The notes under the pieces are model-generated. The model worked only from the letters and a program-made list of their open reading frames with translations, had not been told where the DNA came from and ran no database searches. DNA of 64,000 nucleotides from positions 320,292,001 to 320,356,000 of the forward strand of contig OZ024743.1 in the NCBI GenBank assembly GCA_964016885.1, written 5' to 3'. This DNA is from Eledone cirrhosa (Eukaryota). The translations under genes and the position numbers were made by a program. Within the stretch, counting starts at the first letter, position 1. Each line of letters begins with the position of its first letter. Of this stretch, positions 3,702-58,740 are shown piece after piece.

Positions 3702-5530
3702 CTAGTGGCTGCACTGCTCCTGATGACTTTCAACAAGACTGTCGATTTGGACTTCAAAGGATTGGTTCAATTTGAGCCGCAAATCTCCCCGGTTGATGGT
3801 TTGAAGAAGGTTTCTTTTTCTCAAAAAAATATCATTTAGCGTGGAAAAACCAGATTCAGCAAGCCACGTTGTAGGAAAAGAGAGAATAAAAGGAAAGGCT
3901 TGATCATAAAGGTTTGGAAATATTTTTTCAACATTAAGCCAGCCGAGAAGGCCCTCGCGTTCCATTTTCCCTATCAATAGCGCATTCTCTTTGAGTTCCA
4001 GCAAGTTGACTGCAAGATTAGGATCCAGAGTTTCGTCGCTAATAACATCAACGTTTTGAATGTCCAACAGCCACTGCGGGGTCTTCATGTCCAGTATATC
4101 ATGAAATCGTCGTTTGAAATCAGTTTGTAAATTTCTTATGTGGTCGACGCAACTGATCAAAACGGCGTCAGAAGGTGTCGTTTTGGAGAGATTTGGAAAG
4201 CATGCGAATTCACGTCTCTGCAGATGATTGGACCATAAACAATGCTTAGAGATGACGGATCGAATTTTTTCCGTACAATACACTATTGTAGTCGCACGGC
4301 CTTGAAGGGTCTTGTTTAATGAACTAATGTGTGCAAAAATATCAGACAGATAAAAAATGTTGGTCTTGGTATCGTTGTGGCTTAATTTTTCGACTAGGAG
4401 GCCTGCTCTTTCTCGTTGAATTCGTCTGCATGCCTCAGTCACCATTCGCTGTATGAATAGAAAAAGCGGATCCCATAATTTTACGAGACGATTTAGCGAG
4501 TTTCCCTTGGAAAGCCAGCGGTATGTAAAACCTCGGTATGTAAAAGAAGTGCACGATGTTCTTCATTTTCACACAGTTCTGAAAACAATCGTTCGTAGAC
4601 ACCATTCGCTTTTACGAAGTTAATGCTTGAAATAGCAACTTGAAGTGCATGCTCCATGTCGCTACTTAGGCATTTGGCTGCAAGGTGTTGATGGTGAATG
4701 ATGCAGTGTATGGATAAGACGTGCGGTGCGACTTTCTTAAGTTTTGCAATGAATCCATTATGTACACCCGTCATAGCATTTGCACCGTCTGTGGAAATCT
4801 GAAGTAGATTAGAAAGTGGGATGTTTTTTTCTTCAAAATATTCATACACTGATGCAAAAATGGATTCGCTTTTTGTGTCTTTCAATGATTTCATAAAAAG
4901 CATTTCTTCACGAATACACGTTCCCTCAATGAACCGAACATAAGCAAGAAGAAATGCACAGTTATGAAGAGTCGTTTCATCAATTTTGAGAGAAAATTTG
5001 AGTACTCGAAGCTTCTCCACCAGCTGATTTTCAATATCTGCTGCCATTTCATCCTGTCTGCGTTTGATTGTATCGTTGGAAAGTGGAATTTTCGATAAAA
5101 TATTGGCGGATTCTTCTCCCAGCATTTCCTTTGCACACGCAAGCATGGCCGGTTTTACCAGGAGTTCGGCGATCGTGTGAGGTTTACATACCTTTGCGAG
5201 CATTTCACTTACGATATAACTTGATTTAAGTGCCTTTTTATTAACATCGTTCTTTTTTCGCATGAACATCTGCATCGGAAGTTGTGACTTTCTTCTGTGT
5301 GTTTCCAACTTATTCTTAAAATATTCAACACTTCTTCCAACGGACGTCGGGTGTGCAGCTTTTTGATGCGGTAATAACTTTGACTTCTTCATGGAATCAA
5401 TTGTCATTAACTTTCCACACTCCACACATTCGGGCCTATCGGAATCGATTTCTGATGGTGCAAAGCCGAGATGTAGAAAGTCTGCATTATAGCTCCTAGT
5501 AAACGGTCGTTTGGTAGAATTCGATGACAT
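3702..5530 (-). pseudogene. hAT-Buster transposase, frameshifted
   Basis: BED-type CVEC..HQKAAH, LSNDTIKRR, IDETT, STDGANAMTG, HCIIH, LLLHTEV/RWLSKG, FPTTWLAESGFS; ORFs 4493-5575 and 3702-4445, broken by an 8-nt insertion near 4512-4520. Confidence 0.9.
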
Positions 5531-6090
5531 GATCCTGACAAAATTAGATAAAACTAAAACGAAAGAAAACGGCAAAAAGTTGAGTACGGCAAAAAGGCTG
5601 GTAGTTGTTAGATATCATGGCAAATTAACAATTTGGTTTTGCGAGCCCTTTTCATGTATGTCATATTGTTTAAGCAGCCGGGTGGTTCAAAGCAGGCTCA
5701 ATCTGAACGAATCATTTTATTCTGAAGATATAAGTGCTTACAACTTGGCCAACAAAAGCGTTGACGGACCAAATTTTATTTGTGGAACTGTGATTCTAGA
5801 CGCGATTACCGCGTACCAAAAAGCTATATAAATTGCTTAAAAAGGTACAAATTAATGTAATAGCATATTCTTTCTTTGTAAAATGCATGTTTACTAATAG
5901 TGTACATACGTTTGGCCCACTCTGTATGTTGCCTTAATGACATTAAAAATGTGGAACAACTTTATTATACAAGAAAAAAGTCATTGTTCGCTTTTAACAT
6001 AAATAATAACAATAAAAAGGTTGGAAATTGTTTATAGAAAACAGCATACTCACCTAGTAAAGACTGCAAAACAGATCCACAAGACAAAAT

Positions 6091-6465
6091 GGGTGCAGAA
6101 TTAATTTCGCCACTGAATTAATTTCGCCACATAATTAATTTCGCCACTGAAATAATTTCGCCACTGAAATAATTTCGCTCGGTGAACCCCAAACAAAGTT
6201 ACTCCCCTTGTTTATAACCGCAAAGTGACTAAATATTAAAACAAATGTAATATATTTTTGGGGGTTAGGGTTAGGGTTATGGTTGAGTTAGGGTTGGATT
6301 AGGGTTAGGGTTATTTTTTAGGGTTAGGGTTGGGTTAGGGTTAGGGTTCAATTAAAAAATAACCCTAACCGTAAATATATTACATTTGTTTTAGTCACTT
6401 TACTGATATAAACAACGGGAGTAACTTTCGTTGGGGTTCACCGGGCGAAATTAATTCAGTAACCC
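6091..6465. mobile_element. Non-autonomous foldback element (MULE-like MITE) nested in the hAT
   Basis: Ends GGGTGCAGAATTAATTTCGCC and GGCGAAATTAATTCAGTAACCC, long imperfect inverted arms, tandem AATTTCGCCAC subrepeats, 10-bp TSD AAGACAAAAT/AAGACGAAAT. Confidence 0.75.
6262..6348 (+). repeat. Degenerate (TTAGGG)n telomere-like tract forming the core of the MITE
   Basis: Repeated ggttagggttaggg units between the inverted arms. Confidence 0.85.
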
Positions 6466-12779: not shown

Positions 12780-14312
12780 TGTAGGATTTACGGTTACAAA
12801 GTCCAAATAAATCGGTTCTTCGATTTATTATTGTGTTGAAATTCGAGATAATGGTAAATTTTTCAACTAGACATAAATTACAAACACTAGATATGGAAGC
12901 ATTGGAGTATGAAGATGCGTTGTAGATTTTACGCCAAGAAATTTTGTAATTTATGTTTTTGTCTTTTAAGGATCAAATAAGTTCTGAGAATGCGGTGCTG
13001 GTCCTTTTAAGTGGAGATTTAAATGTAGAAGAATGATTATAGAATCTTGCTTTAAAGGAGGTAGACGTAGAGCCAATATAGGTATAGGTGTTGGCACTAG
13101 TTACCATTTTACTAGGTTTTTATCGAGACAGAAATTACTAAGTGGACAATTAGTTCTAATAGGGCATTTGCATTTACGATTAATATTATTTACAGAGTCA
13201 TTTGAAAGTTGCCCAGGATTAATTATATTAGGAACTGGAGTGGTGGAATTAACTAAAGGAGGTGCTAAAGTTTCCAGATTTACATTACTATTTGATGCAT
13301 TCCTCAAAATTACGTTTGGCGTCGTATTTATACTTGTGTTATTTTGCCTAGATTTTACATTGACGTCGGCCCTTATAGTGTTATTATTATGACTCTCATG
13401 GTTGGATGCATATGAGTATTATTTAATATTTTAGAATTATGTCTTGAGATAATTTTGGAAATGTTCGAAGTAGTAGAACACAAGAATTTAATAGTATGCC
13501 TATTGAAAATCTTGCTATATATGTGTTAAGTAGGGAAGCTGTTATGTAAAGCCCTCAAAAATAATTTAGGGATATTATTAATAACGGAAAGACAGAAGGG
13601 AGCGTTGTACCAAATGATACTTTTATATCTAGGTCTCCTCCTTTTGTTAGCAGTGTGATTATTACTAGCTGCATTACTAGAGTTATTATAAGCTCTGCCA
13701 AGGTTAAGATGTTTAGTATACCTAATTTTATCTAGATATCCAGCCCTAGATAGGACATTATTATAATAGTTGGCATTGACTTTGAAGATATCTTTATTAG
13801 AGGGTAAACTAGAAATTCTTTTTTCTACACTTTTGACTATAGCAGTTTTAACATTAATAGGGTGGTTAGATTTAAAGTTAACGTAATTTAAGTTCTCATT
13901 ATCCTTATGATATGGGTAATATAGGCCGGTATCTAAATTAAGGGATATATCAAGTGAATTTGGTAGTTTAACATTATTCTCGAATTCAATTTTTAAGTTA
14001 AGATGCTTAAATACATCAAGTATATTTTTATTAATTATATTAAAGTTTACATTGTTACAATTAGAGACAGTAAAAAGAGCATCATCACGATTAATCCCAC
14101 CACGAAGTTGAGGAATTTTCCGGTTTAAAGAATTCAAGATGAAAATTCCAACTAAGTCGGTCAGTTGAGCTGAATCCGTCGAACCCATGGTGATGTCGAA
14201 ATTGTTGGAAGTATCCGCTCTTGTCCAGTATTCATTGTTAAATTCCAAGATGGTTTTCCTAGCGGTGAGAATGATGTTTATTTGTTCACTAGTGATGTCC
14301 GCATATTTTAAC
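12780..14312 (-). pseudogene. Penelope-like element, 5'-truncated RT + GIY-YIG, with stops
   Basis: FDITMGSTDSAQLTDLVG, GGINRDDAL, IIWYNAPF, CKCPIRTNCPLSNFC, YIGST; 5' end abuts (TA)n. Confidence 0.88.
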
Positions 14313-14366
14313 GCATATATATATATATATACATACACACACACACACACACACAGACACACACAT

Positions 14367-14452
<86 letters not shown>

Positions 14453-14825
14453 ATATACCTATACAGACATACAAACCAACACGCATATATGTATATATAT
14501 ATGAAATAAATATACATACACACACATATATATATATATGCATACATATATATATACATATATACACGCACATACATATATATATATATATACACATACA
14601 TACATACATGTACAAACACATCCACATACATACACATACAAAAAAATGTAAATAATATAGATAGATGAATATCAAAGGTACATAACCCACGTACATGCGT
14701 ACACATACGCGCGCGCACACACGCACGCAATAAAAATCAACACACGCATACATATAAACATTTACGTAAATCCATACACACATATATACACATATATACA
14801 AAAACATATATACATACACATACAA

Positions 14826-14940: not shown

Positions 14941-16850
<1,910 letters not shown>

Positions 16851-17815
16851 CTTATGAAAGATTTCTTTATGGTTTATGCTTTGGATATATTCCAATGAAT
16901 GAATTTTTAAATGTTAACACGTTATAGCAAACAAATTTATGTTTTTAACAGTCATAACTGTATGACAGGTTGGAGTTATGAATTTATAACTTGCTATAAA
17001 ATAACATGAAATTCATACTCTAATTACAACATTAAGATGGATAATCAAAATTTTTAACAACTTAACTTTATAACATTTAACTTTATAACATTTAATCCTT
17101 AGAGCTATCTAAATTATTAATAAATTGCTAGCAATTTCCTTTACGCTCTACTGCTATTACAAATAAGGGATTATTCTTCGGTAAACTCTCGGAAATTCCA
17201 TGAGCTTAGAAATATTCGGATATTTTAAACTTACACATTTTTTAAAATAATTAATTAATAATAAATAATAAAATGATATATGGTTTTGTAATAATAACAT
17301 ATTTTAAATAATATATATTCTTTAACAATAATATATAGGTTTCAACTTTAATAATATAACATACACATTTAAACATTTAAACTACGGATTGAATTGAACA
17401 TTTAATCAAATTTATTAATTAAACATTAGATAAATTCTTCAACTTATCTTTATTATTGTTTATCCATCTTTATTAGTATCTGTTATTGTTTATTATTATT
17501 GTTTATCCATCTTACGGTATTCATCCACGCTTTATTTATTTCTTCGCCTCTTCTCTCAAAATTAGGCTATTCTCTCTCACTAAAATATACACAGGTTTCT
17601 CTCTTTCTTGCTTTCGTTTTTTTTCTCTTTCTTTTCTCTTTTTTCCATATTCAAACGGCTTAATTTAAATATACTGTTTTTAAACCTTTCCAACACTAAT
17701 TTGCATAATAAACCAACAATAAATCTAATAACTCCACTATCCAGGAGGTTCCAACCAGAATGGTTGCATTTTTTAAGGGTACGTCAATATTTATTTATAA
17801 AACTAACCTACATTA

Positions 17816-17881
17816 TATTTTATCTGATGAAAGCGCACCATAGTTTGCTCTAGTGGCCATTGAAATAGGTATAATGAAATA
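17816..17881 (+). ncRNA. Type I hammerhead-like motif (weak stem II); mirror at 58759-58824
   Basis: tattttat-CTGATGA..GAAA-taggta-TA-atgaaata; 8-bp stem I. Confidence 0.55.
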
Positions 17882-17891
17882 AATATGGTTT

Positions 17892-19477
<1,586 letters not shown>

Positions 19478-19928
19478 TATTGATATTTATATATATGTGT
19501 GTATGTGTATATACACATGCATGTATGTATAGAGCTTTTTGTTTATGTGTTTTTGTGTTTGTATATATGTATGTTTATATGTGTGTGTACACCGCCTTTT
19601 TATATGTGTGCGTGTGTATTTGTGTGTATATTTTTGAGTATATATATATCTGTGTATATGTTTGTGTATGTATTTATAATCCTATTCGTATTTCTATGTA
19701 GACGCAGATACGCTTATGTGAGAAAGGAAAGTATACGTCTACGTACTATTACGTATATGCGCGTAGTTGAGTGTGTGTATGTTTTTGTTCTGGATAGTTA
19801 TTTTTTTATATATATTTTTTATATTTTTTCCCTTATTTCCTTTTTGTCCATTTTTTTTTCAGCCTCACTTTCGTATTTCCTAAATTTTGTTTTCAAATCC
19901 ATATTTAATAAAAACACCATGTTATTTA

Positions 19929-19989
19929 TTCATTCTGACGACTGAAGACAGCCGCAACATCTGCCTTCAAGAAACTAGTGGCAAATGAA
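19929..19989 (+). ncRNA. Hammerhead 'ctgacgactgaa' family with degenerate cleavage site; mirror 51669-51729
   Basis: ttcatt-CTGACGA-ctgaag..ttcaa-GAAA-ctagtggca-aatgaa. Confidence 0.45.
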
Positions 19990-20092
19990 ATAATTATTTA
20001 TGTTTTTTATTAGATAACTAATAAGCTCTGTAGCCTACATAGAGCACTCTTGTTTCCTCTACCTTTCCGACGGAAATACTTCATATATATAT

Positions 20093-20297
<205 letters not shown>

Positions 20298-20774
20298 TAC
20301 ATACATATATATATATATATTAATATAAGCAGAACAAGCAAAATTCAACCAATTTTTTAAAATAAATTAAAAAATATAATGAATAGGTAAATATTTAAAT
20401 TATATTTTTTAATTTATTTTAAAAAATTGGTTGAATTTTGCTTGTTCTGCTTATATTAATATTATAGTTCTGGTATGTCAAATTGATACCATAGAACAAC
20501 CTTAAATCATAGACAACCTATGTATTTCCAGGGGTACTTAGTACCCACGGGCTTACTAACTTCTTCTATCACCCTCCATTTGTTGAGAACAATCACGTTG
20601 ATTCTATTTAGCTGCTATTTTTAGTAACGAGATAGACAACACGTCTATGTTTTTCCCGCTTTAACCTCGGGTAGTTCACGTACAGGTCATTTTTCGGCCT
20701 TTTGGATCTGTGCTAGCTGGCAGATAACAATATATTTTATCGTTCCTGGGTCTTTAGCCCTAGGAAAGGAAAAT

Positions 20775-20856
20775 GCTTCTCTGATGAGCCTTGATTTTCC
20801 ATTAGAAATCCATTGGGTCTCTGGTGTTTTACAAGGCGAAACCGATCGGTAAGAGC
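20775..20856 (+). ncRNA. Type I hammerhead ribozyme, unit 1
   Basis: gcttct-CTGATGA-gccttg..caaggc-GAAA-ccgatcgg-TA-agagc; predicted GUA cleavage after 20851. Confidence 0.9.
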
Positions 20857-21254
20857 CATATGAATAGGTAAATATTTAAATTATATTTTTTAATTTATTT
20901 TAAAAAATTGGTTGAATTTTGCTTGTTCTGCTTATATTAATATTATAGTTCTGGTATGTCAAATTGATACCATAGAACAACCTTAAATCATAGACAACCT
21001 ATGTATTTCCAGGGGTACTTAGTACCCACGGGCTTACTAACTTCTTCTATCACCCTCCATTTGTTGAGAACAATCACGTTGATTCTATTTAGCTGCTATT
21101 TTTAGTAACGAGATAGACAACACGTCTATGTTTTTCCCGCTTTAACCTCGGGTAGTTCACGTACAGGTCATTTTTCGGCCTTTTGGATCTGTGCTAGCTG
21201 GCAGATACAATATATTTTATCGTTCCTGGGTCTTTAGCCCTAGGAAAGGAAAAT

Positions 21255-21336
21255 GCTTCTCTGATGAGCCTTGATTTTCCATTAGAAATCCATTGGGTCT
21301 CTGGTGTTTTACAAGGCGAAACCGATCGGTAAGAGC
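21255..21336 (+). ncRNA. Type I hammerhead ribozyme, unit 2
   Basis: Same sequence as 20775-20856. Confidence 0.9.
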
Positions 21337-21735
21337 CATATGAATAGGTAAATATTTAAATTATATTTTTTAATTTATTTTAAAAAATTGGTTGAATTTT
21401 GCTTGTTCTGCTTATATTAATATTATAGTTCTGGTATGTCAAATTGATACCATAGAACAACCTTAAATCATAGACAACCTATGTATTTCCAGGGGTACTT
21501 AGTACCCACGGGCTTACTAACTTCTTCTATCACCCTCCATTTGTTGAGAACAATCACGTTGATTCTATTTAGCTGCTATTTTTAGTAACGAGATAGACAA
21601 CACGTCTATGTTTTTCCCGCTTTAACCTCGGGTAGTTCACGTACAGGTCATTTTTCGGCCTTTTGGATCTGTGCTAACTGGCAGATAACAATATATTTTA
21701 TCGTTCCTGGGTCTTTAGCCCTAGGAAAGGAAAAT

Positions 21736-21817
21736 GCTTCTCTGATGAGCCTTGATTTTCCATTAGAAATCCATTGGGTCTCTGGTGTTTTACAAGGCGA
21801 AACCGATCGGTAAGAGC
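21736..21817 (+). ncRNA. Type I hammerhead ribozyme, unit 3
   Basis: Same sequence as 20775-20856. Confidence 0.9.
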
Positions 21818-22008
21818 CATATGAATAGGTAAATATTTAAATTATATTTTTTAATTTATTTTAAAAAATTGGTTGAATTTTGCTTGTTCTGCTTATATTA
21901 ATATTATAGTTCTGGTATGTCAAATTGATACCATAGAACAACCTTAAATCATAGACAACCTATGTATTTCCAGGGGTACTTAGTACCCACGGGCTTACTA
22001 ACTTCTTC

Positions 22009-22064
<56 letters not shown>

Positions 22065-22095
22065 GTTTCAGATGTTCAAGTCCTTTAGTAATGAT

Positions 22096-22169
22096 GCTGT
22101 GATATATATTTCAATGGCGACAGTGGCCACACTGTTGCATGCGCCAGTGCCGTGACATCGTCAGACAGC
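22096..22169 (-). ncRNA. Type I hammerhead; mirror 51382-51455
   Basis: Reverse complement gctgt-CTGACGA-(long stem II)-GAAA-tatata-TC-acagc. Confidence 0.7.
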
Positions 22170-29081: not shown

Positions 29082-29830
29082 CTATCCGTTAGGGTATAAC
29101 GTGGGGCTGTAATACAGGAAAGTTTTGTGCAATTTATGTTTACAAGCCGAAATTGCCTCAGATTTTTTGTTTAAGATGTGGTCTGTGGCGTAGAGTATTT
29201 CCAGGGCCTCAGCGGCGCAGAGGTCACATGGTCTTTTATTTCCGTTATACGATCTAGCCCTAGCTAGGATCTCCCAGTGTAACTTATATTGGGTGTGGTT
29301 GTCTTTTAGACTCCAGATATAAGCTGAAAGTGACGTTATATTCCTTCTTAGAGGGTAACGAAAAGAATGGGTATACATGTAAAGACGCTGTTTGAAACTA
29401 TTGGCGGTTAACCCTATGTAGGCCCTACGGGACGTGGGTGTTACAACCTTACATTTGTAGACAATGTTACTAGAGAGGCATTTCCCGGATAGGGGGCAAT
29501 CAGCCCGATTCCTACAATTACAGTTAGTACTAACTACAGGGTTGCACCTGTTCCTACGGCTAGGTAGTTTAGCTAAATTTGAAGCTGTGATGTTATGTGC
29601 AAGGTTAGGAGTCGTAGAGTAAGAAATTTTAATAGTATTTCTATTAAAAATTTTACTATATTTATGTGTAGGGGGAAAATGCTTCGTAATAAGGGAAAGA
29701 AAGATCTTAGCTAATGGTGTGGCCACCTCCATATTATATGGTGGGTTAAACCAACAAATGCGACGGGATCTATTTCTTCTAGGTCTATTTACATACTCTG
29801 TATATGCTTCTTCAATTTTATTATTATTAC
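29082..29830 (-). pseudogene. Penelope-like 3' fragment, GIY-YIG domain still open
   Basis: ICWFNPPY, KHFPPTHKYSKIFNRN, CNCRNRADCPLSGKC, IVYKC..YIGLT, CDLC; 5' end at (TA)n. Confidence 0.9.
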
Positions 29831-29927
<97 letters not shown>

Positions 29928-30284
29928 CGTTTAAATAGCTTGACAAATCGAACATTGTGGTAGGCAAAATCTAACGATAGAACTAACAGGTTGAGAAAAG
30001 TACACCTGGTCAAATCAAACGATTATACGTTCAAAGTGTTTCTTTGAAATCCAAAATCAAATATCAGACTTACGTGACTGGCAAGCTCGTGGTATTCATG
30101 ATCGAACAGAGGATTCAGTTTTTCAGCAGGTTTTCGTTCTACCCAGAACAGGGGTGATAGGCTAAATGTTGCTGCTAGATGCAGCGTATCGTATCTATAT
30201 CTGTCACGTGTTAATTCCAGTAAGGGAAATAACCCGCGGTTTTTGGCGGGTCATTACAAATGTTAGACAAAGGAAATATTTTAA

Positions 30285-33911: not shown

Positions 33912-33969
33912 TTCATTTACCAGTGGTTTCTTGAAAGCAGATATATATGCATTCAGTCGTCAGAATGAA
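33912..33969 (-). ncRNA. Hammerhead 'ctgacgactgaa' family; mirror 37449-37506
   Basis: Reverse complement ttcatt-CTGACGA-ctgaatgca..tgctttcaa-GAAA-ccactgg-TA-aatgaa. Confidence 0.7.
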
Positions 33970-34093: not shown

Positions 34094-34146
34094 CGTGGGA
34101 AAGTGAAAAATCGGAGAATAGACCGTTAAAACATGTTTATTTAAAA

Positions 34147-34191
34147 TATCACCTACGTACGTTTCGCCCAGTTGGGCTTCTCAAGGGCATA
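34147..34191 (-). ncRNA. U3-A8 variant hammerhead in the Penelope 3' UTR; mirror 37171-37215
   Basis: gccc-TTGAGAA-gccca(ac)tgggc-GAAA-cgtacg-TA-ggtg; palindromic ACGTACGT stem III. Confidence 0.7.
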
Positions 34192-34439
34192 AACAATCAC
34201 AAGTGTTCCTTATATAGTTCAGAAAGAGTTTTGGGGGTTAAATCCACATCAAGATTCATTGCTCGCAAAAATATCTTGTTTTGATTTTGCAGCAGGTCAA
34301 GGGAGGTAACTTTGGCCGGTGTTAGGGCAGTCCTTCCCGGATAATTTTTGGTATGCAAGGATTGTTTTCTGGGTGTTATTTTGCTGCGCCTGCCCGCCGG
34401 GGTGTTAAGACTTGTTGCAGGGAGATCCAGTGTGCTATT

Positions 34440-36539
34440 TCACTCTTCATTCTTAACCCATCTAAAGAAGGATATTTTTAAGCGATGTGTACAACTTATC
34501 GCTGTTTCAGCTCTGCTGTTGATGAGCTCGTGGGGTGCAGTTATGATGTGGTAGAGCTCCATGAGGCAAAGATCGCATTTCCTCTTGAAGTTGTACGGTG
34601 CAGCCCTGTCGACAATCTCCCAGTGCGTGGAGAAGCTAATGTTTAAGTCCTTTAGTGATGTGATGTAGTCCGCGAGCGAGGTGGAGTGCCTTAGTTTTCT
34701 ATTTGTGAAAGAGTGGAGATGTGTTCGAAACCTAATTTTGAACGGGCCGGAGGTGGCCCCTATATAATGTTTAACGCTATTGTGGCTAGTAATAGTGCAT
34801 CTATTTATAACCCTATCGGTCAAGCAGTATCCTCTAAGGGGGCACCGTCCTCTGTCGCGGCAGTTGCAATTTCTGTCGCTGTTCCGTCTATTTCCCACGA
34901 TAAGGCTATCATTGTTGCTGCCTACGTTGCTAGCTGCGCTACCGCAGCTGTCGTTAGCACAATTACAGCCCACAGCACGCGGGATGGTGCGATTGTTATT
35001 CCGCACGCCACGTTTTGCATGCTCCCCAGTCACTTCGCGGTCATTCTGGTTGCGTCTGCGGATGCCGTTGCCAACACTATTGGATGCTGTCAGGGAGTTG
35101 TTAAGGCCGATACAGTTATTGTCAGGTGTAGGTGCGTCTGCGTCGAGGTGCTGTGTCTTGGTGATCTTACTGTGGTTCGTTGTTCCTATGATGTCTGCTA
35201 GGTTAGGAGTAGTAGAGAAGGATATTTTTATATTGTTCCTATTAAGAATTTTTCTATACCTATGGTTGGGTGGGAAGTTCTTCTCTAAGGCTTCGAAGAA
35301 TATCCGGGGTATGTTGGAGGCCACACTTCGAGAGTAGGGGGGGGGGGTGTGGAACCATAGGACGTTACGGTGGCGATTACGTGTCCTTGTACTTTTGCTA
35401 CGGGTGGTTCCATCTAAGTGATCGCTCATATGTGTGTTAATGCGCTGTCGCCCGTTCGGTGCCCCTTTCGCTTTATGCTCGGGTGCACTCTTTCTACCAC
35501 TTCCATGTTTATGTACACGAAGATGTTGGTTGGAAGGCGTTGGTAGTAGGCCGTCGCCTTTGTTGGTTTTGTAATAGGGTAATAGTTTGAGTAATCTACA
35601 GTATTCACCGTCGCCGGGGACGTGATCTTTGGTGCGGTTATCTATTCTATTATATCCGACTTTAACGAGGTCGCCGCGTGATCGGTTATAGGTATGGCTT
35701 ACTATAACGTTAGTTTTATGAGGGGGGTGGTTTCTAGAGCTAGCGTTAGGGATGTAGGAAATTCCTCGGTTAAAGCCGGCGCTTATCAGGGCCCTATTGT
35801 AGTAATCAGCAGCTTGGTTGAAGATATCCTCATTGGCGGATAGCCTCGAGATTCTATGTGAGATACTATAGACTATGGAGTTGAGAGTCTGCTTAGGGTG
35901 GTTGGAGGCATAATTAATATAAGAGAGGCACTCTCCAGGCTTATGGTATGGCTTGCATAAGCCCGTACTCAACTCCAGGGTCACGTCCAGGAAGTTGACA
36001 ACCCTGTGGTTGAGGTCCATAGTTACGGATAGGCCGTATGACTTAAAGAACCTGTGTATATGTTTGTTAAGGTTCTCTATCCTACGGGGGCTATGGTTCC
36101 TAACGGTAAACAGGGCGTCGTCCCTATATACACCTCCTTGTAGGGCCGGTATTTCTTCCCTAAGCTTATGTAGGAGGTATATCCCAACCAGGTCAGTTGC
36201 TTGCGCTGAGTCGCTGGACCCCATCGTGACATCGAAGTTATCAGGACGGTTGGTTCTGGTCCAGTGGGAGCCTTCGAACTGGATAATGGTTCTACGTGCC
36301 GCTAGAATTATGTCTATTTCTTTTTTGGTGAGGCTAGTGTTAGATCTAGCTAAGATAAGTGCCTTATTTAAGAGTATGGGGGAGATAGAGGCGTAGTAGC
36401 TATCTATATCAAACTGGATGAATTTCAGGGTGGCTTTATCCGGCAACTCGGTGAACCAATTTATGACCTGGTCGGTATTGCCCCAGAGGCAGACCTTAGC
36501 CTTTCTATTAAGCTCGAGTAGTACTCTGTCAATGATCAC
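34440..36539 (-). CDS. Penelope-like reverse transcriptase + GIY-YIG endonuclease (N-terminally truncated, uninterrupted 699 aa)
   Basis: FIQFDIDSYYASI, FDVTMGSSDSAQATDLVG, GVYRDDAL, VNFLDVTL, CNCRDRGRCPLRGYC, VINRC..HYIGAT..R, CDLCLME; homologous frame continues to the fold-back junction (DIGKISKV, ~36560). Confidence 0.92.
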   Translation of the reverse strand: MIIDRVLLELNRKAKVCLWGNTDQVINWFTELPDKATLKFIQFDIDSYYASISPILLNKALILARSNTSLTKKEIDIILAARRTIIQFEGSHWTRTNRPDNFDVTMGSSDSAQATDLVGIYLLHKLREEIPALQGGVYRDDALFTVRNHSPRRIENLNKHIHRFFKSYGLSVTMDLNHRVVNFLDVTLELSTGLCKPYHKPGECLSYINYASNHPKQTLNSIVYSISHRISRLSANEDIFNQAADYYNRALISAGFNRGISYIPNASSRNHPPHKTNVIVSHTYNRSRGDLVKVGYNRIDNRTKDHVPGDGEYCRLLKLLPYYKTNKGDGLLPTPSNQHLRVHKHGSGRKSAPEHKAKGAPNGRQRINTHMSDHLDGTTRSKSTRTRNRHRNVLWFHTPPPYSRSVASNIPRIFFEALEKNFPPNHRYRKILNRNNIKISFSTTPNLADIIGTTNHSKITKTQHLDADAPTPDNNCIGLNNSLTASNSVGNGIRRRNQNDREVTGEHAKRGVRNNNRTIPRAVGCNCANDSCGSAASNVGSNNDSLIVGNRRNSDRNCNCRDRGRCPLRGYCLTDRVINRCTITSHNSVKHYIGATSGPFKIRFRTHLHSFTNRKLRHSTSLADYITSLKDLNISFSTHWEIVDRAAPYNFKRKCDLCLMELYHIITAPHELINSRAETAISCTHRLKISFFRWVKNEE

Positions 36540-37267
36540 TTTACTAATCTTACCTATATCTATGCACTATTACTAGCCACAATAGCGTTAAACATTATAT
36601 AGGGGCCACCTCCGGCCCGTTCAAAATTAGGTTTCGAACACATCTCCACTCTTTCACAAATAGAAAACTAAGGCACCCCACCTCGCTCGCGGACTACATC
36701 ACATCACTAAAGGACTTAAACATTAGCTTCTCCACGCACTGGGAGATTGTCGACAGGGCTGCACCGTACAACTTCAAGAGGAAATGCGATCTTTGCCTCA
36801 TAGAGCTCTACCACATCATAACTGCACCCCACGAGCTCATCAACAGCAGAGCTGAAACAGCGATAAGTTGTACGCATCGCTTAAAAATATCCTTCTTTAG
36901 ATGGGTTAAGAATGAAGAGTGAAATAGCACACTGGATCTCCCTGCAACAAGTCTTAACACCCCGGCGGGCAGGCGCAGCAAAATAACACCCAGAAAACAA
37001 TCCTTGCATACCAAAAATTATCCGGGAAGGACTGCCCTAACACCGGCCAAAGTTACCTCCCTTGACCTGCTGCAAAATCAAAACAAGATATTTTTGCGAG
37101 CAATGAATCTTGATGTGGATTTAACCCCCAAAACTCTTTCCGAACTATATAAGGAACACTTGTGATTGTTTATGCCCTTGAGAAGCCCAACTGGGCGAAA
37201 CGTACGTAGGTGATATTTTAAATAAACATGTTTTAACGGTCTATTCTCCGATTTTTCACTTTCCCAC

Positions 37268-37355
<88 letters not shown>

Positions 37356-43852: not shown

Positions 43853-44214
43853 TAATTAAAATATTTCCTTTGTCTAACATTTGTAATGACCCGCCAAAAA
43901 CCGCGGGTTATTTCCCTTGCTGGAATTAACACGTGACATATATAGATACGATACGCTGCATCTAGCAGCAACATTTAGCCTATCACCCCTGTTCTGGGTA
44001 GAACGAAAACCTGCTGAAAAACTGAATCCTCTGTTCGATCATGAATACCACGAGCTTGCCAGTCACGTAAGTCTGATATTTGATTTTGGATTTCAAAGAA
44101 ACACTTTGAACGTATAATCGTTTGATTTGACCAGGTGTATTTTTCTCAACCTGTTAGTTCTATCGTTAGATTTCGCCTACTACAATGTTCGAATTCTCAA
44201 GCTATTTAAACGTA

Positions 44215-44309
<95 letters not shown>

Positions 44310-44311
<2 letters not shown>

Positions 44312-45058
44312 GTAATAATAATAAAATTGAAGAAGCATATACAGAGTATGTAAATAGACCTAGAAGAAATAGATCCCGTCGCATTTGTTGGTTTAACCCA
44401 CCATATAATATGGAGGTGGCCACACCATTAGCTAAGATCTTTCTTTCCCTTATTACGAAGCATTTTCCCCCTACACATAAATATAGTAAAATTTTTAATA
44501 GAAATACTATTAAAATTTCTTACTCTACGACTCCTAACCTTGCACATAACATCACAGCTTCAAATTTAGCTAAACTACCTAGCCGTAGGAACAGGTGCAA
44601 CCCTGTAGTTAGTACTAACTGTAATTGTAGGAATCGGGCTGATTGCCCCCTATCCGGGAAATGCCTCTCTAGTAACATTGTCTACAAATGTAAGGTTGTA
44701 ACACCCACGTCCCGTAGGGCCTACATAGGGTTAACCGCCAATAGTTTCAAGCAGCGTCTTTACATGTATACCCATTCTTTTCGTTACCCTCTAAGAAGGA
44801 ATATGACGTCACTTTCAGCTTATATCTGGAGTCTAAAAGACAACCACACCCAATATAAGTTACACTGGGAGATCCTAGCTAGGGCTAGATCGTAACGGAA
44901 ATAAAATACCATGTGACCTCTGCGCCGCTGAGGCCCTGGAAATACTCTACGCCACAGACCACATCTTAAACAAAAAATCTGAGGCAATTTCGGCTTGTAA
45001 ACATAAATTGCACAAAACTTTCCTGTATTACAGCCCCACGTTATACCCTAACGGATAG
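44310..45058 (+). pseudogene. Penelope-like GIY-YIG fragment, mirror of 29082-29830 with an extra frameshift
   Basis: Same peptide up to LARARS, then a 2-nt deletion (tcgtaacgg versus tcgtataacgg). Confidence 0.9.
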
Positions 45059-51486: not shown

Positions 51487-51533
<47 letters not shown>

Positions 51534-52264: not shown

Positions 52265-52268
<4 letters not shown>

Positions 52269-53402
52269 AAAACAAATAACGAAACGAAATTAAATTTCGT
52301 TTCGTTCGTAACTCACTTTTGTATGACTGACGCTTAAACAATTAAGTTAAAAATGTACATCCACATATGTATACTGAAATACTAGTATGCATATGAATAC
52401 ACACACGTATACATATGTAGATGTACCGAGTTTTTCACTGGTCACTTTACTGTGAGTGTCCAGCTATTCTGTATGTAAACACACAGACAAACCGGTTTTT
52501 AGAGTCATACTGGTTTTTGAGGAAACACCTTTCCTCTATTCTCCAGAAAGCCAGAAAAGGAATATTGAACTAGTTTCGTTGTTGTTACAACTCATCAGCA
52601 ACATTTACCTATCTTCCGGCGTTTCTAGAGAATCGTAAAAGCACATATCGTTATATGCTTTTTCTATGAAAATTAGTAGTGGGCAGACTAATTTGCATAG
52701 AGCGTGAGTACGTACCGGTTCAACGGAGACGATAAAAACAAATAACGAAACGAAATTAAATTTCGTTTCGTTTGTAACTCACTTTTGTATGACTGACGCT
52801 TAAACAATTAAGTTAAAAATGTACATCCACATATGTATACTGAAATACTAGTATGCATATGAATACACACACGTATACATATGTAGATGTACCGAGTTTT
52901 TCACTGGTCACTTTACTGTGAGTGTCCAGCTATTCTGTATGTAAACACACAGACAAAAGTGAGTTACAAACGAAACGAAATTTAATTTCGTTTCGTTATT
53001 TGTTTTTATCGTCTCCGTTGAACCGGTACGTACTCACGCTCTATGCAAATTAGTCTGCGCACTACTAATTTTCATAGAAAAAGCATATAACGATATGTGC
53101 TTTTACGATTCTCTAGAAAGGCCGGAACATAGGTAAATATTGCTGATGAGTCGTAACAACAACGAAACTAGTTCAATATTCCTTGTCTGGCTTTCTGGAG
53201 AATAGAGGAAAGGTGTTTCCTCAAAAACCAGTATGACTCTAAAAACCGGTTTGTCTGTGTGTTTACATACAGAATAGCTGGACACTCACAGTAAAGTGAC
53301 CAGTGAAAAACTCGGTACATCTACATATGTATACGTGTGTGTATTCATATGCATACTAGTATTTCAGTATACATATGTGAATGTACATTTTTAACTTAAT
53401 TG

Positions 53403-53403
<1 letters not shown>
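52265..53403 (-). mobile_element. 466-bp retrozyme-like array, mirror copy with one fewer unit
   Basis: Reverse complement of 17892-19377; the inverted unit here runs on to (TA)n. Confidence 0.8.
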
Positions 53404-53455
<52 letters not shown>

Positions 53456-55189: not shown

Positions 55190-58100
55190 AATCATCACCA
55201 TCATCATCGTTTAACGACCATGTTCCACGCTTGCATGGGTTTGGACGGGAATTTTCCCACTTGTGGCAAGAGTGGTTGTCATTGCTCGCATAGGACTGTC
55301 TGGCGGGTTTTCTACAGCTGGATGCCCTTCCTAACACCAACCACATTTACAGTGTGGGGCTGGGAGGTTTTTACCGTGTTGCCTACACGGCCACATTACA
55401 GCGCGAACTGTGTGTTTTTTTGTCGTGACACCTACACGATCTCATTTGTTTCGGCCTGGATGTTGTGGCACCAACATAACTTTACATTGAAAGGGGCGGT
55501 GTGGATGGGGTGGGGTGGTGGGACGGGAGTGTATTTTGTTAGAGATGCCTACTGACTGTAGTAGGTTTTACTTTGTATTTAGGTAAGGCGGGTCTTCTCT
55601 ATTACTGAGTACCGCCAAAGGTCTCAGTCCAGTAACATTGTCTTGGAGAGGTGTAAGTGTGTGAGGTCGCAATTTACCAGCTCGTCCCAGGTTTTTTCTG
55701 GGTCTGCCTACTCCGTGGCTACCGTCTATCTTTATTGCCCTGCACTTTGTTATACAGCTGTCGTCTTTCATGCGCATCACGTGACCATACCAACGTAGCC
55801 TTCTCTCGAGTAAACAACATCTGATCCCTCTTAATTCTACTTTTTTCCTTAATTCGTTTATGCTTTGCCGTTCACGTATATTACTATTACCCATCCCGCG
55901 GAGCATGCAAGCTTCGTTCCTCTCTAGTCTGCGTATATCCTCTGCACACAATGCCCAGGTCTCACTGCCATGCAACATTGCTGTTCGTATGCAGGCATCA
56001 TACAACCTGCCTTTCATTTTTAGGGAGAACCCTTTAGCGGCTAATAGTGGTATAAGCTCTCTGAACTTTTTCCATCCAGTTCTGACTCTAGCTACTGTAC
56101 TTTCAGAGCACCCTCCCCCACTGCTGATTTTGTCACCCAGGTAACGGAAGCTGTCCACTATTTCTATAGAACCCTCTGCGCAATTGAAAGAGCTAGTATT
56201 TAGTGGGCACTTGCTGCTACTTATTGCGCCAGAGCACCGGCCACATGTAAAATCTATGTTCTTAGCTTACCTTTGATCCCACTACATCTTTTATGCACCC
56301 ATACTTTGCATTTGGGACATAAAATGGAGTTTCTACATACGCCTTTCCTACACACTGAGCATGGTCATTTCCCGGAAGGGACCGGCGCCTTATTTTCTTT
56401 CCTACAAACTAGAACTTTAGTCTTAGCCAGGTTAATTTTAGGGCCTTTTGATTCTAGGCTGTGCTTCCATGTTTGGAATTTCTTCTCTAGCTCGGCCATT
56501 GATTCAGCTATGAGCGTTAGATCTTCTGCGTATAGGAGTTCCCATGGGAAGCCGGTCTTGAACTCCTCTGTTATAGCCTGAAGGGCAATAAAAAATAGTA
56601 GGGGGCTAAGAACAGAGCCCTGATGGACACCAACTTTTACGCTAAACTCTTCACTATATTCGTTGTTAATTCTAACCTTGCTGACTGTTTCTTTATACAT
56701 GGTTTGTATAGCTCTCACAAGCCATTCGTCAACACCTAGTTTTCTAAGAACCCACCAGATAATGGAACGGGGGACTCTGTCGAAGGCTTTCTCCAAGTCG
56801 AAAAAAGCTAAGTATAGGGGTTTACTTTTAGCTAGGTACTTCTCCTGTAGTTGTCGTACAATGAAAAGAGCGTCTGTGGTACTTTTGCCTGACACAAACC
56901 CGAACTGCATTTCATCTAAATCAATTCTCTCTCTGATTAGTTGCGCTATTACTTTTTCCGTGACCTTCATGACCTGGTCGATTAATTTAGTGCCTCTATA
57001 GTTACTCCTATCTAGGGCGTCTCCTTTACCCTTGTAACAGTTAACGATGATGCTGCTACGCCAGTCCTTCGGAACAACCCCATTCTGTATGACTTGGTTT
57101 ACTATCCGGGTGACCATGGTGTGTCCCACCGTTCCAGAGGCTTTCAGCATCTCAGCAACTATTTCCGAAGGCCCAGCCGCCTTACCCGTCTTCATATCTT
57201 TGATTGCCTTACTTATTATACTACCTTCGACTAACACTGCTGGTCCCTCTATTGTTTCGATGTGGGGGAGACTGTCTTTCTCCCATTTATTCTCCTCATT
57301 TAGTAGCCTTTTGTAGTGACACTTCCAAGCTACCTTCTTATCAGCGTCAGTGATGGCAAGTACGCCATCATCGTTAAGTACACACTTCTCCCCGACAATA
57401 TCACGGTTTTCCTTGACACATTGCCTAGCAATCCTGAACACCTCACGTTTTTGGTCCTCGCGTTGTAGAACATGCTTGAACTTTCTTTCCTCTGCTTCCC
57501 TTCTTGCGAAGTACACTTGTCTCCTAGCTTCCCTCCTGGCCACCTGATAGTCTTCTCTACTTCCCCCATCCCGCCATACTTTCCAAGCCTACTTTTTGGC
57601 CTTAATCGACTCCTCCACCTTACTGTTCCACCACCATGTTACTCTCCTCCTGCATATAGGCCTACTCCGGCCACAGACTTCTTCTGTCGCCATCAGCAGG
57701 TTTGCTTTCAGGAATTCCCACTGTTCCTCTATATTGTACGACTCTAAATGCTCTTCCTTACTGTCGAAAGCATCAAGTAATATGCTTTGAAATTTATTTC
57801 TGGCTGTGGGGTCCTTTAGCTTCCATATTTTTCTCCTGAGGATAGTCCTCTTCTGCTGTCGGGTACGTCTCGTCCTGACTATGAGGTCGCTAATTATCAG
57901 TCTATATTGGGAGATGCATTCTTCATGGGGGAGGGATTTAGTGTTTGCAACAGACACTCTGTCACGTCTTCTGGTAAGGATATAATCTACCTGGCTGGTA
58001 TGTTCCCCCGATCTGTAGGTGATCAAGTGATTGTCTCGTTTTTTGAAGTTAGTGTTACAGATTGTTAGGTTATTTGCGTCACAGAATTCCAGGATTCTGA

Positions 58101-58740
58101 ACCCTTCCTCATTTCTAGTACCAAACCCATAGCCTCCGTGGATTCCATCATAGCCGTCACAATGTTGTCCAACGTGACCATTTAGGTCACCAGTAATAAT
58201 TATATAGTCACTGTCGGTTATTTGGGAGGTAGTGAGCATCAGTGTCTCATAGAAAGTGTCTTTTATAGCGCCAGGCAGTCCGGATTGGGGCGCGTACGCA
58301 GATATTATCGTCACAGTAGTTCTATTTAGAACAAGTCTTATTTTAATTATTCTGTCGTTTACTCTATTTACGTCTATTATCTTATCCACCCATTTTTCTG
58401 CTAACATGATTCCTACCCCACCCAGCCCATTGTCATTTCCCACCCAGAAAAGCTTATAGCATCGTTTTTTACCCACAATGAATCTAGCGGACCCGCCCCT
58501 CCACCTGGTCTCTTGGATACAGCAGACATCAACCTCCTTACGTTCAAGCATTTCTACAACCTCGTTAGAGCGGCCTTTTAAGGTCCCTACATTCATGGTA
58601 CCAACTCTGAAGTTTTGGATTGCGTTTGGTGGGTGGAGTGCAGGGAGGGGTGAGGTGGATGGGGTTGGGGTTATGTTGGCCATCCGCGGCCGCAATAAAG
58701 AGGGTGGGGCCTCGCCCTTTCGTCCGGCAGTTGGAAACTA
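55190..58740 (-). mobile_element. Near full-length RTE (BovB-like) LINE, frameshifted
   Basis: APE ORF 57589-58695 (GTMNVGTL, CIQETRW, GDLNGHVG, SQVDYIL), RT ORF 56365-57543 (QFGF, DLEKAFD, GVHQGSVLSP, YAEDL), Cys-rich finger ~56230-56365, C-terminal ORF 55568-56158, (GAT)n-type tail ~55190-55208. Confidence 0.93.

Follow-up and report, generated by a model that had tools for sequence, protein, structure and literature searches.

A young hammerhead array in a (TA)n tract, with junctions that point to Penelope-like elements

Described retrozymes and Penelope-like elements

Non-LTR retrozymes are described as tandem repeats with type I hammerheads; circular RNAs are reported from coral, mussel and axolotl, with Penelope-like elements (PLEs) proposed as helpers (PMC7229834; PMC7761336). 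Multimeric retrozyme RNAs have also been observed in axolotl (PMC7229834). According to the cited section of a 2020 review, the repeats carry no motif that names a helper (PMC7761336). The class is already known, and the cited text of a 2026 preprint by Li, Clavereau and Pollet argues that animal retrozymes, with units of 51-972 bp, are non-autonomous PLE derivatives (bioRxiv 10.64898/2026.07.22.740005). Their case rests on co-occurrence in vertebrates and on Xenopus pLTR homology, and, by the same text, neither the life cycle nor any other organisms had been studied.

PLE insertions, as presented in the cited part of Craig et al. 2021 (PMC8557442), show partial tandems, an inverted 5′-truncated copy and a (TA)n target, and almost all Hydra families are found in (TA)n. 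The Hydra-clade proteins have the motifs CxCX5C, CxxC before E, and CxH. Non-autonomous Chlamys PLEs such as MRC1 belong to the green-algal clade, mostly lack hammerheads, and have 3′ ends in common with their autonomous partners (PMC8557442). For the Poseidon PLE, Frangieh et al. (PMC11167929) describe internal initiation, AT-rich cleavage, and uncut RNA as the main substrate in vitro, with no reads ending at the hammerhead site in the portion cited here.

The window, which is the whole 64,000-nucleotide stretch analysed and comes from an animal-like genome, contains an array of 480-nt units that resembles both groups. Like metazoan non-LTR retrozymes, it is a non-coding tandem with one type I hammerhead per unit, a GC content of 36%, no LTR, PBS or PPT seen, and co-occurring PLEs. 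The hammerhead is present in at least two consecutive units, GC is below 50%, the unit is dispersed, and its predicted monomer fold is stable. The unit length is inside the range of Li et al. and slightly over the 150-450 bp given in the cited part of Cervera and de la Pena 2020 (PMC7229834). In contrast to non-LTR retrozymes as described in these texts, the array has a structured 46-nt insert in stem II, an inverted head, and a (TA)n target. Circular RNA has been shown for such retrozymes of coral, mussel and axolotl, and is a prediction for the 480-nt array.

With Hydra-clade PLEs, as far as PMC8557442 describes them, the array shares insertion into (TA)n, a partial tandem with a 5′-truncated first copy, an inverted 5′ copy, and a hammerhead near the 3′ end. 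In its layout (GAA-ac..gt-a, a GUA site, and a 3′ end not far beyond), the hammerhead agrees with the Hydra table of that paper, in which stem III is similar and the sites are GUA or GUU. The distance from cleavage site to 3′ end is 199 nt in the array and about 35-150 nt in that table, by hand arithmetic on 10 of its rows. Unlike these PLEs, the unit has no ORF, shows no sequence likeness to the only complete PLE 3′ UTR in the window (blastn, word 7), and has none of five short motifs in the published Naiad, Chlamys and Hydra consensi, by exact matching in which line breaks could hide matches. A literature search, with most subscription journals outside its coverage, returned no report of the 480-nt family and none of a retrozyme with an inverted head. 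The array is likely a new member of the non-LTR retrozymes, or non-autonomous PLEs. It is real and young, carries a long stem-II insert that appears to covary, and has junctions that point to Hydra-clade PLEs.

Layout, age and hammerheads of the array

The array had been predicted at 20316..22011 as about 3.4 near-identical non-coding units. The tandem part stands at 20379-22011 (Tandem Repeats Finder, TRF: 481-nt period, 3.4 copies, 99%), while 20317-20380 is an inverted copy outside the tandem that the original prediction overlooked. Aligned on the 3′ end, the forward-strand tandem consists of a 5′-truncated first unit of 191 nt that reaches the terminus of the element (20379..20569), followed by full units of 481 nt (20570..21050), 480 nt (21051..21530) and 481 nt (21531..22011). 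The units differ in two respects in all: an indel of a single A, which sets 20726/21687 apart from the middle unit, and a G>A change at 21677. Neither falls within a hammerhead, and all three hammerheads are therefore identical, as predicted. A dimer-periodic template was considered for the 481/480/481 pattern and set aside as unneeded, since a deletion together with a substitution accounts for the units. Neither strand of the unit has an ATG ORF longer than 40 codons.

The insertion is flanked by (TA)n on the 5′ side (20124..20316) and on the 3′ side (22012..22064), as found by TRF and by inspection of the sequence. The inverted head is 64 nt long, lies on the reverse strand (20317..20380), and is a 100% reverse complement of 20399-20462, with 18 nt separating the arms. 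The junction of its outer end with (TA)n falls on an internal AT-rich site, the equivalent of 20943, and its inner end overlaps the direct start by 2 nt (AT). The direct part begins at the equivalent of 20860, which is 8 nt past the equivalent of the cleavage site, and the last unit ends in ...CTAT fused to (TA)n at 22011, 199 nt beyond the last predicted cleavage site. Both ends agree with the original prediction. No target-site duplication is discernible at the insertion.

Most of the window is a mirror repeat (11545-34800 versus 36562-64000) with arms of about 24 kb, centred on a PLE and its inverted copy. The arms diverge by 0.57% near the centre and by about 2% around 20-23 kb. Either the repeat is a genuine inverted duplication for which the PLE inversion was the seed, or the assembler has joined two haplotypes. 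At the position equivalent to the array, the mirror arm has plain (TA)n (51487..51530) between the same flanks and the array is absent, as had been claimed. The flanks differ from the mirror arm by 1.65% and 2.12%, and the units differ among themselves by 0-0.21%. The insertion postdates the split of the mirror arms or, should these be two haplotypes, is polymorphic.

The three type I hammerheads are on the forward strand at 20773..20859, 21253..21339 and 21734..21820, with predicted cleavage at GUA after 20851, 21331 and 21812. The CUGAUGA motifs start at 20781, 21261 and 21742, and the first bases past the predicted cleavage are 20852, 21332 and 21813. In the first hammerhead, stem I (20773-80/20852-59) comprises 4 bp, a mismatch and 3 bp. 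The core CUGAUGA (20781-87) is followed by a 6-bp stem II (20788-93/20832-37), GAAA (20838-41) and a palindromic stem III (20841-50). Stem II is closed by the 46-nt insert, which itself contains a hairpin (20800-11/20815-26). The short loop 2 and the loop 1-loop 2 contact of the canonical hammerhead are absent, and Rfam gives no match; in the cited part of PMC7229834, most loop-contact nucleotides are missing in mussel retrozymes too. The original description as canonical holds for the core, and not for the interrupted stem I, the stem II with its insert, or the failure to match Rfam at the gathering score or at E<=1.

The hammerhead motif is not due to chance. On both strands, a relaxed descriptor matches none of 20,000 dinucleotide-shuffled versions of the unit, and over the whole window it gives nine matches in the real sequence and none in 20 shuffled windows. 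Rfam at the gathering score gives no match in the window. At E<=1 over 17800-22100 there are 44 matches, none of which is the hammerhead of the 480-nt unit; the hammerhead matches come from a neighbouring 466-nt unit only, and the others are low-score miRNA and snoRNA matches that are taken as chance. A degenerate hammerhead pattern matches no metagenome contig. A long covarying insert in stem II means that Rfam and short-loop descriptors overlook such hammerheads.

In nearest-neighbour folding, the active hammerhead fold lies about 4.2-5.8 kcal/mol above the free ensemble, and the minimum free energy (MFE) structures of the free folds are not the active hammerhead. Given this energy and the palindromic stem III, the prediction is that the hammerhead is weak or depends on a dimer. 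Hammerheads with a palindromic stem III, and their activity as dimers, are treated in the cited part of PMC4209133. Only one of nine predicted Xenopus retrozyme dimers was cut in vitro, as given in the cited text of Li et al. (bioRxiv 10.64898/2026.07.22.740005).

Relatives of the unit and their covariation

Seven of the 11 sequencing runs listed contain the unit or part of it, across three studies. Contigs or reads were examined from runs X1, X4, X6 and X9; the unit share in two other runs is 0.09 (X7) and 0.00 (X8). Run X1, from organism A, possibly the source of the window itself, has 530 matching contigs, with 131 at 99% identity or more, 151 at 95-99%, 173 at 90-95% and 75 below 90%. Run X4 (organism B) has 20 matching contigs, run X6 (organism C) has seven, and run X9, a separate study of organism A with RAD reads, has 403 matching reads. 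The head-to-tail junction 21050/21051 is spanned by one X4 contig. Judged from these matches, the unit is a dispersed and diverged family in three organisms, not one locus.

The relatives vary in a way that supports the ribozyme fold, with apparent compensatory changes in stem II, stem III and the insert hairpin. In contig X4-10, eight of the ten pairs touched by variation stay paired, three of them through double changes: C-G>U-A at 20790/20835 in stem II, G-C>U-A at 20805/20821 in the insert hairpin, and C-G>U-A at 20843/20848 in stem III, where the palindrome is retained. The other two pairs look broken. Contig X6-18 keeps three of five touched pairs, one by change on both sides. None of the 17 variant positions listed in the motif falls on the 13 defined core positions, among the 40 variant rows listed of 103. 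G20788A, which is not among these 13 positions, is carried by X6-18 and by a minority each of X1 and X9, and disrupts a core-adjacent pair there, and contig X4-9 has an apparent C.A mismatch at 20790/20835. Variants were attributed to contigs through matching depth values.

Other copies also meet microsatellites. In X9, 60 reads that perhaps represent one locus have (TA)n behind 20947, which is 4 nt from the outer end of the inverted head, and in X4 it stands in front of 21121. One X6 contig has its terminus exactly at 21050. PLE insertions would be expected to have a fixed 3′ terminus, with an optional tail of 30-40 bp. Among the 24 rows listed of 126, the loose ends are concentrated at 21027 and 21045, and none of these 24 has a (TA)n tract behind 21050. 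The permuted ends in (TA)n that had been expected elsewhere have so far not appeared, as the single other 3′ end seen is at the same base.

The depth profile of X1 differs along the unit. Summed contig depth, which is no copy number, rises from 2,013 through 11,846 to 69,820 across the cleavage-site region. It is minimal just beyond the 3′ terminus (48-2,554) and maximal from the cleavage site to the terminus (mostly 12,000-71,000). Such a profile would be expected of 3′-anchored, 5′-truncated copies, and is a hint of them given that depth is no copy number. X4 depth shows no step at the cleavage site, and in X6 the peak region (20869-20909) also matches unrelated contigs.

Template, helper and surroundings

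The array is quite probably a young insertion of a non-coding hammerhead family, a non-LTR retrozyme, that was copied into (TA)n by the reverse transcriptase (RT) and GIY-YIG endonuclease of a PLE, the Hydra clade being the probable source. The retrozyme nature, the young insertion and the RNA-mediated origin proposed earlier are borne out by the empty mirror site, the family in three organisms, the compensatory changes, and the microsatellite junctions elsewhere. A PLE is the likely helper, a role inferred from anatomy only, because an inverted head, a tandem body and a (TA)n target are published PLE anatomy. Because the copy is young, faces an empty allele-like site, has PLE-type junctions and lies near a Hydra-like PLE, it makes a clean test case for the identity of the helper and for circle versus multimer.

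This nearby PLE is at the centre of the mirror repeat (34094..37268, reverse strand). It is 5′-truncated, with (TA)n on both sides, an ORF encoding RT and then GIY-YIG (34440-36566), and an inverted copy (36562-37268). The 708-aa frame has YRDD, CxCX5C, YIG, CxxC before E, and CxH around N, which are the motifs given for the Hydra clade; it is truncated upstream of the RWK and DKT motifs. Its protein-atlas neighbours carry RVT_1, HTH_animal and GIY-YIG at 0.95-0.97, and Pfam gives no family for three PLE ORFs (seven of the nine proteins searched were without a match). A variant hammerhead is found 60 nt from the 3′ end, and the overall anatomy is the same as that of the array. In this hammerhead (34150-34190 on the reverse strand and 37175-37215 on the forward strand), the variant core CUUGAGAA replaces CUGANGA, with a palindromic stem III and a GUA site. 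Fragments of other PLE families are present at 29082-29930 (−), 44170-44895 (+) and 13526-14458 (−), the first with the Hydra-type CxCX5C, YIG, CxxC and CxH.

A second retrozyme-like array, with a 466-nt unit and a GUU site, is located 940 nt upstream of the 480-nt array (17891..19378, forward strand). It has an inverted head, a tandem body of 2.5 units, and a 3′ end of ...TAT on (TA)n. Its mirror copy (52266-53404) has 1.5 units and the same inversion junction. The 466-nt unit contains a compact type I hammerhead (Rfam HH9, E 5.7e-8), and its circular fold has a z of -9.0. A 13-nt word is common to the 480-nt unit (20864-20876, just past the cleavage site) and the 466-nt unit (18566-18578, stem I/loop 1), and a similar word follows the PLE cleavage site; the sharing of the word may be chance.

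The pathway that fits the junctions would begin with a master array transcribed into multimers, in which the predicted weak or dimer-dependent hammerhead would cut only some sites. The PLE protein would nick (TA)n, and reverse transcription would begin at a fixed internal site 199 nt past a cleavage site. Copying would then run through three uncut hammerheads and halt 8 nt short of the cut 5′ end of the RNA. The 64-nt inverted head would arise if the second target strand primed at the internal AT-rich site, or if the cDNA folded back. As the template, a linear multimer cut by the ribozyme (or else a series of cut monomers between which the enzyme jumps) is considered a little less than an even prospect. 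A circle, a cut linear multimer and later amplification in DNA would yield identical DNA.

The circular template is the next most plausible, though it falls clearly below even chances. Monomers cut at both hammerheads would be ligated into a 480-nt circle, around which the RT would travel 3.4 times, and the helper would still likely be a PLE. Seamless, near-identical units are consistent with this, as are the circular RNAs shown for coral, mussel and axolotl retrozymes in the cited part of PMC7229834 and the predicted circular fold of the unit (MFE -116, 60% paired), which is stabler than 60 shuffles (z -3.6). However, the copy stops 8 nt past the cleavage site, although a circle would offer no 5′ end; by chance such a stop would involve about 9 of 480 positions, in what is one case. 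A tandem transcript yields the same DNA, and a linear multimer with a cut 5′ end accounts for the stop beside the cleavage site more simply, so that the circle is not required. The start near the cleavage site is seen in this array alone, as the 466-nt array begins 77 nt after its own site.

Expansion in DNA is unlikely as the source of the unit number. A PLE-type insertion would have begun with 1.4 units and reached 3.4 through unequal exchange or slippage, and unit number can indeed change in DNA because the 466-nt array, with one inversion junction, counts 2.5 units in one arm against 1.5 in its mirror copy. The cited text of Li et al. (bioRxiv 10.64898/2026.07.22.740005) also proposes that PLE termini are amplified locally. 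Even so, a retroposed seed is still needed, and the youth of the insertion, with its low divergence between units and empty mirror arm, leaves little time for two gains.

SINE-like mobilisation by a LINE is improbable. Broken LINE-type endonuclease and RT frames are present in the window at 55568-58737 (−; Pfam PF03372 and PF00078), with others at 15153-16698 (+), and LINEs can produce 5′ inversions through twin priming. The array, however, has no poly-A, and no 3′ tail is common to the unit and the LINE fragments, while head-to-tail units, a hammerhead, (TA)n and an inverted head recur together in the window's PLE as well as in published ones. A plain tandem duplication at this locus, or a satellite in which a hammerhead-like motif arose by chance, has only the tandem layout in its favour and can be dismissed because of the diverged relatives in three organisms with their compensatory changes and other (TA)n junctions, together with the empty mirror site and the absence of the motif from the shuffled units.

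Within the preferred PLE-mediated copying, hammerhead cleavage might also set the 5′ limit of copying in vivo, a speculative and rather doubtful extension. Cut monomers would then give solo copies of about 190 nt, from the cleavage site to the 3′ start site, only uncut multimers or circles would give arrays, and the conserved stem-II hairpin would tune the switch. The stop 8 nt after the site and the rise of depth in X1 are hints in this direction. If true, cleavage-limited copying would be a role for PLE hammerheads in transposition, and the junction anatomy would tie invertebrate retrozymes to Hydra-clade PLEs.

Two more single type I hammerheads lie on the reverse strand, at 33963 and 26319, with (TA)n following 120 and 176 nt after their ends. 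The family of the hammerhead at 33963 also has a lengthened stem II. A relative of this family near 19936 (+; 19370-20083) ends at the microsatellite that hosts the 480-nt array, and by eye has a G at the cleavage position. Two frames in 3702-5614 (−), without a Pfam match, presumably resemble a DNA transposase. A short, degenerate GGGTTA telomere-like repeat is found at 6262-6348.
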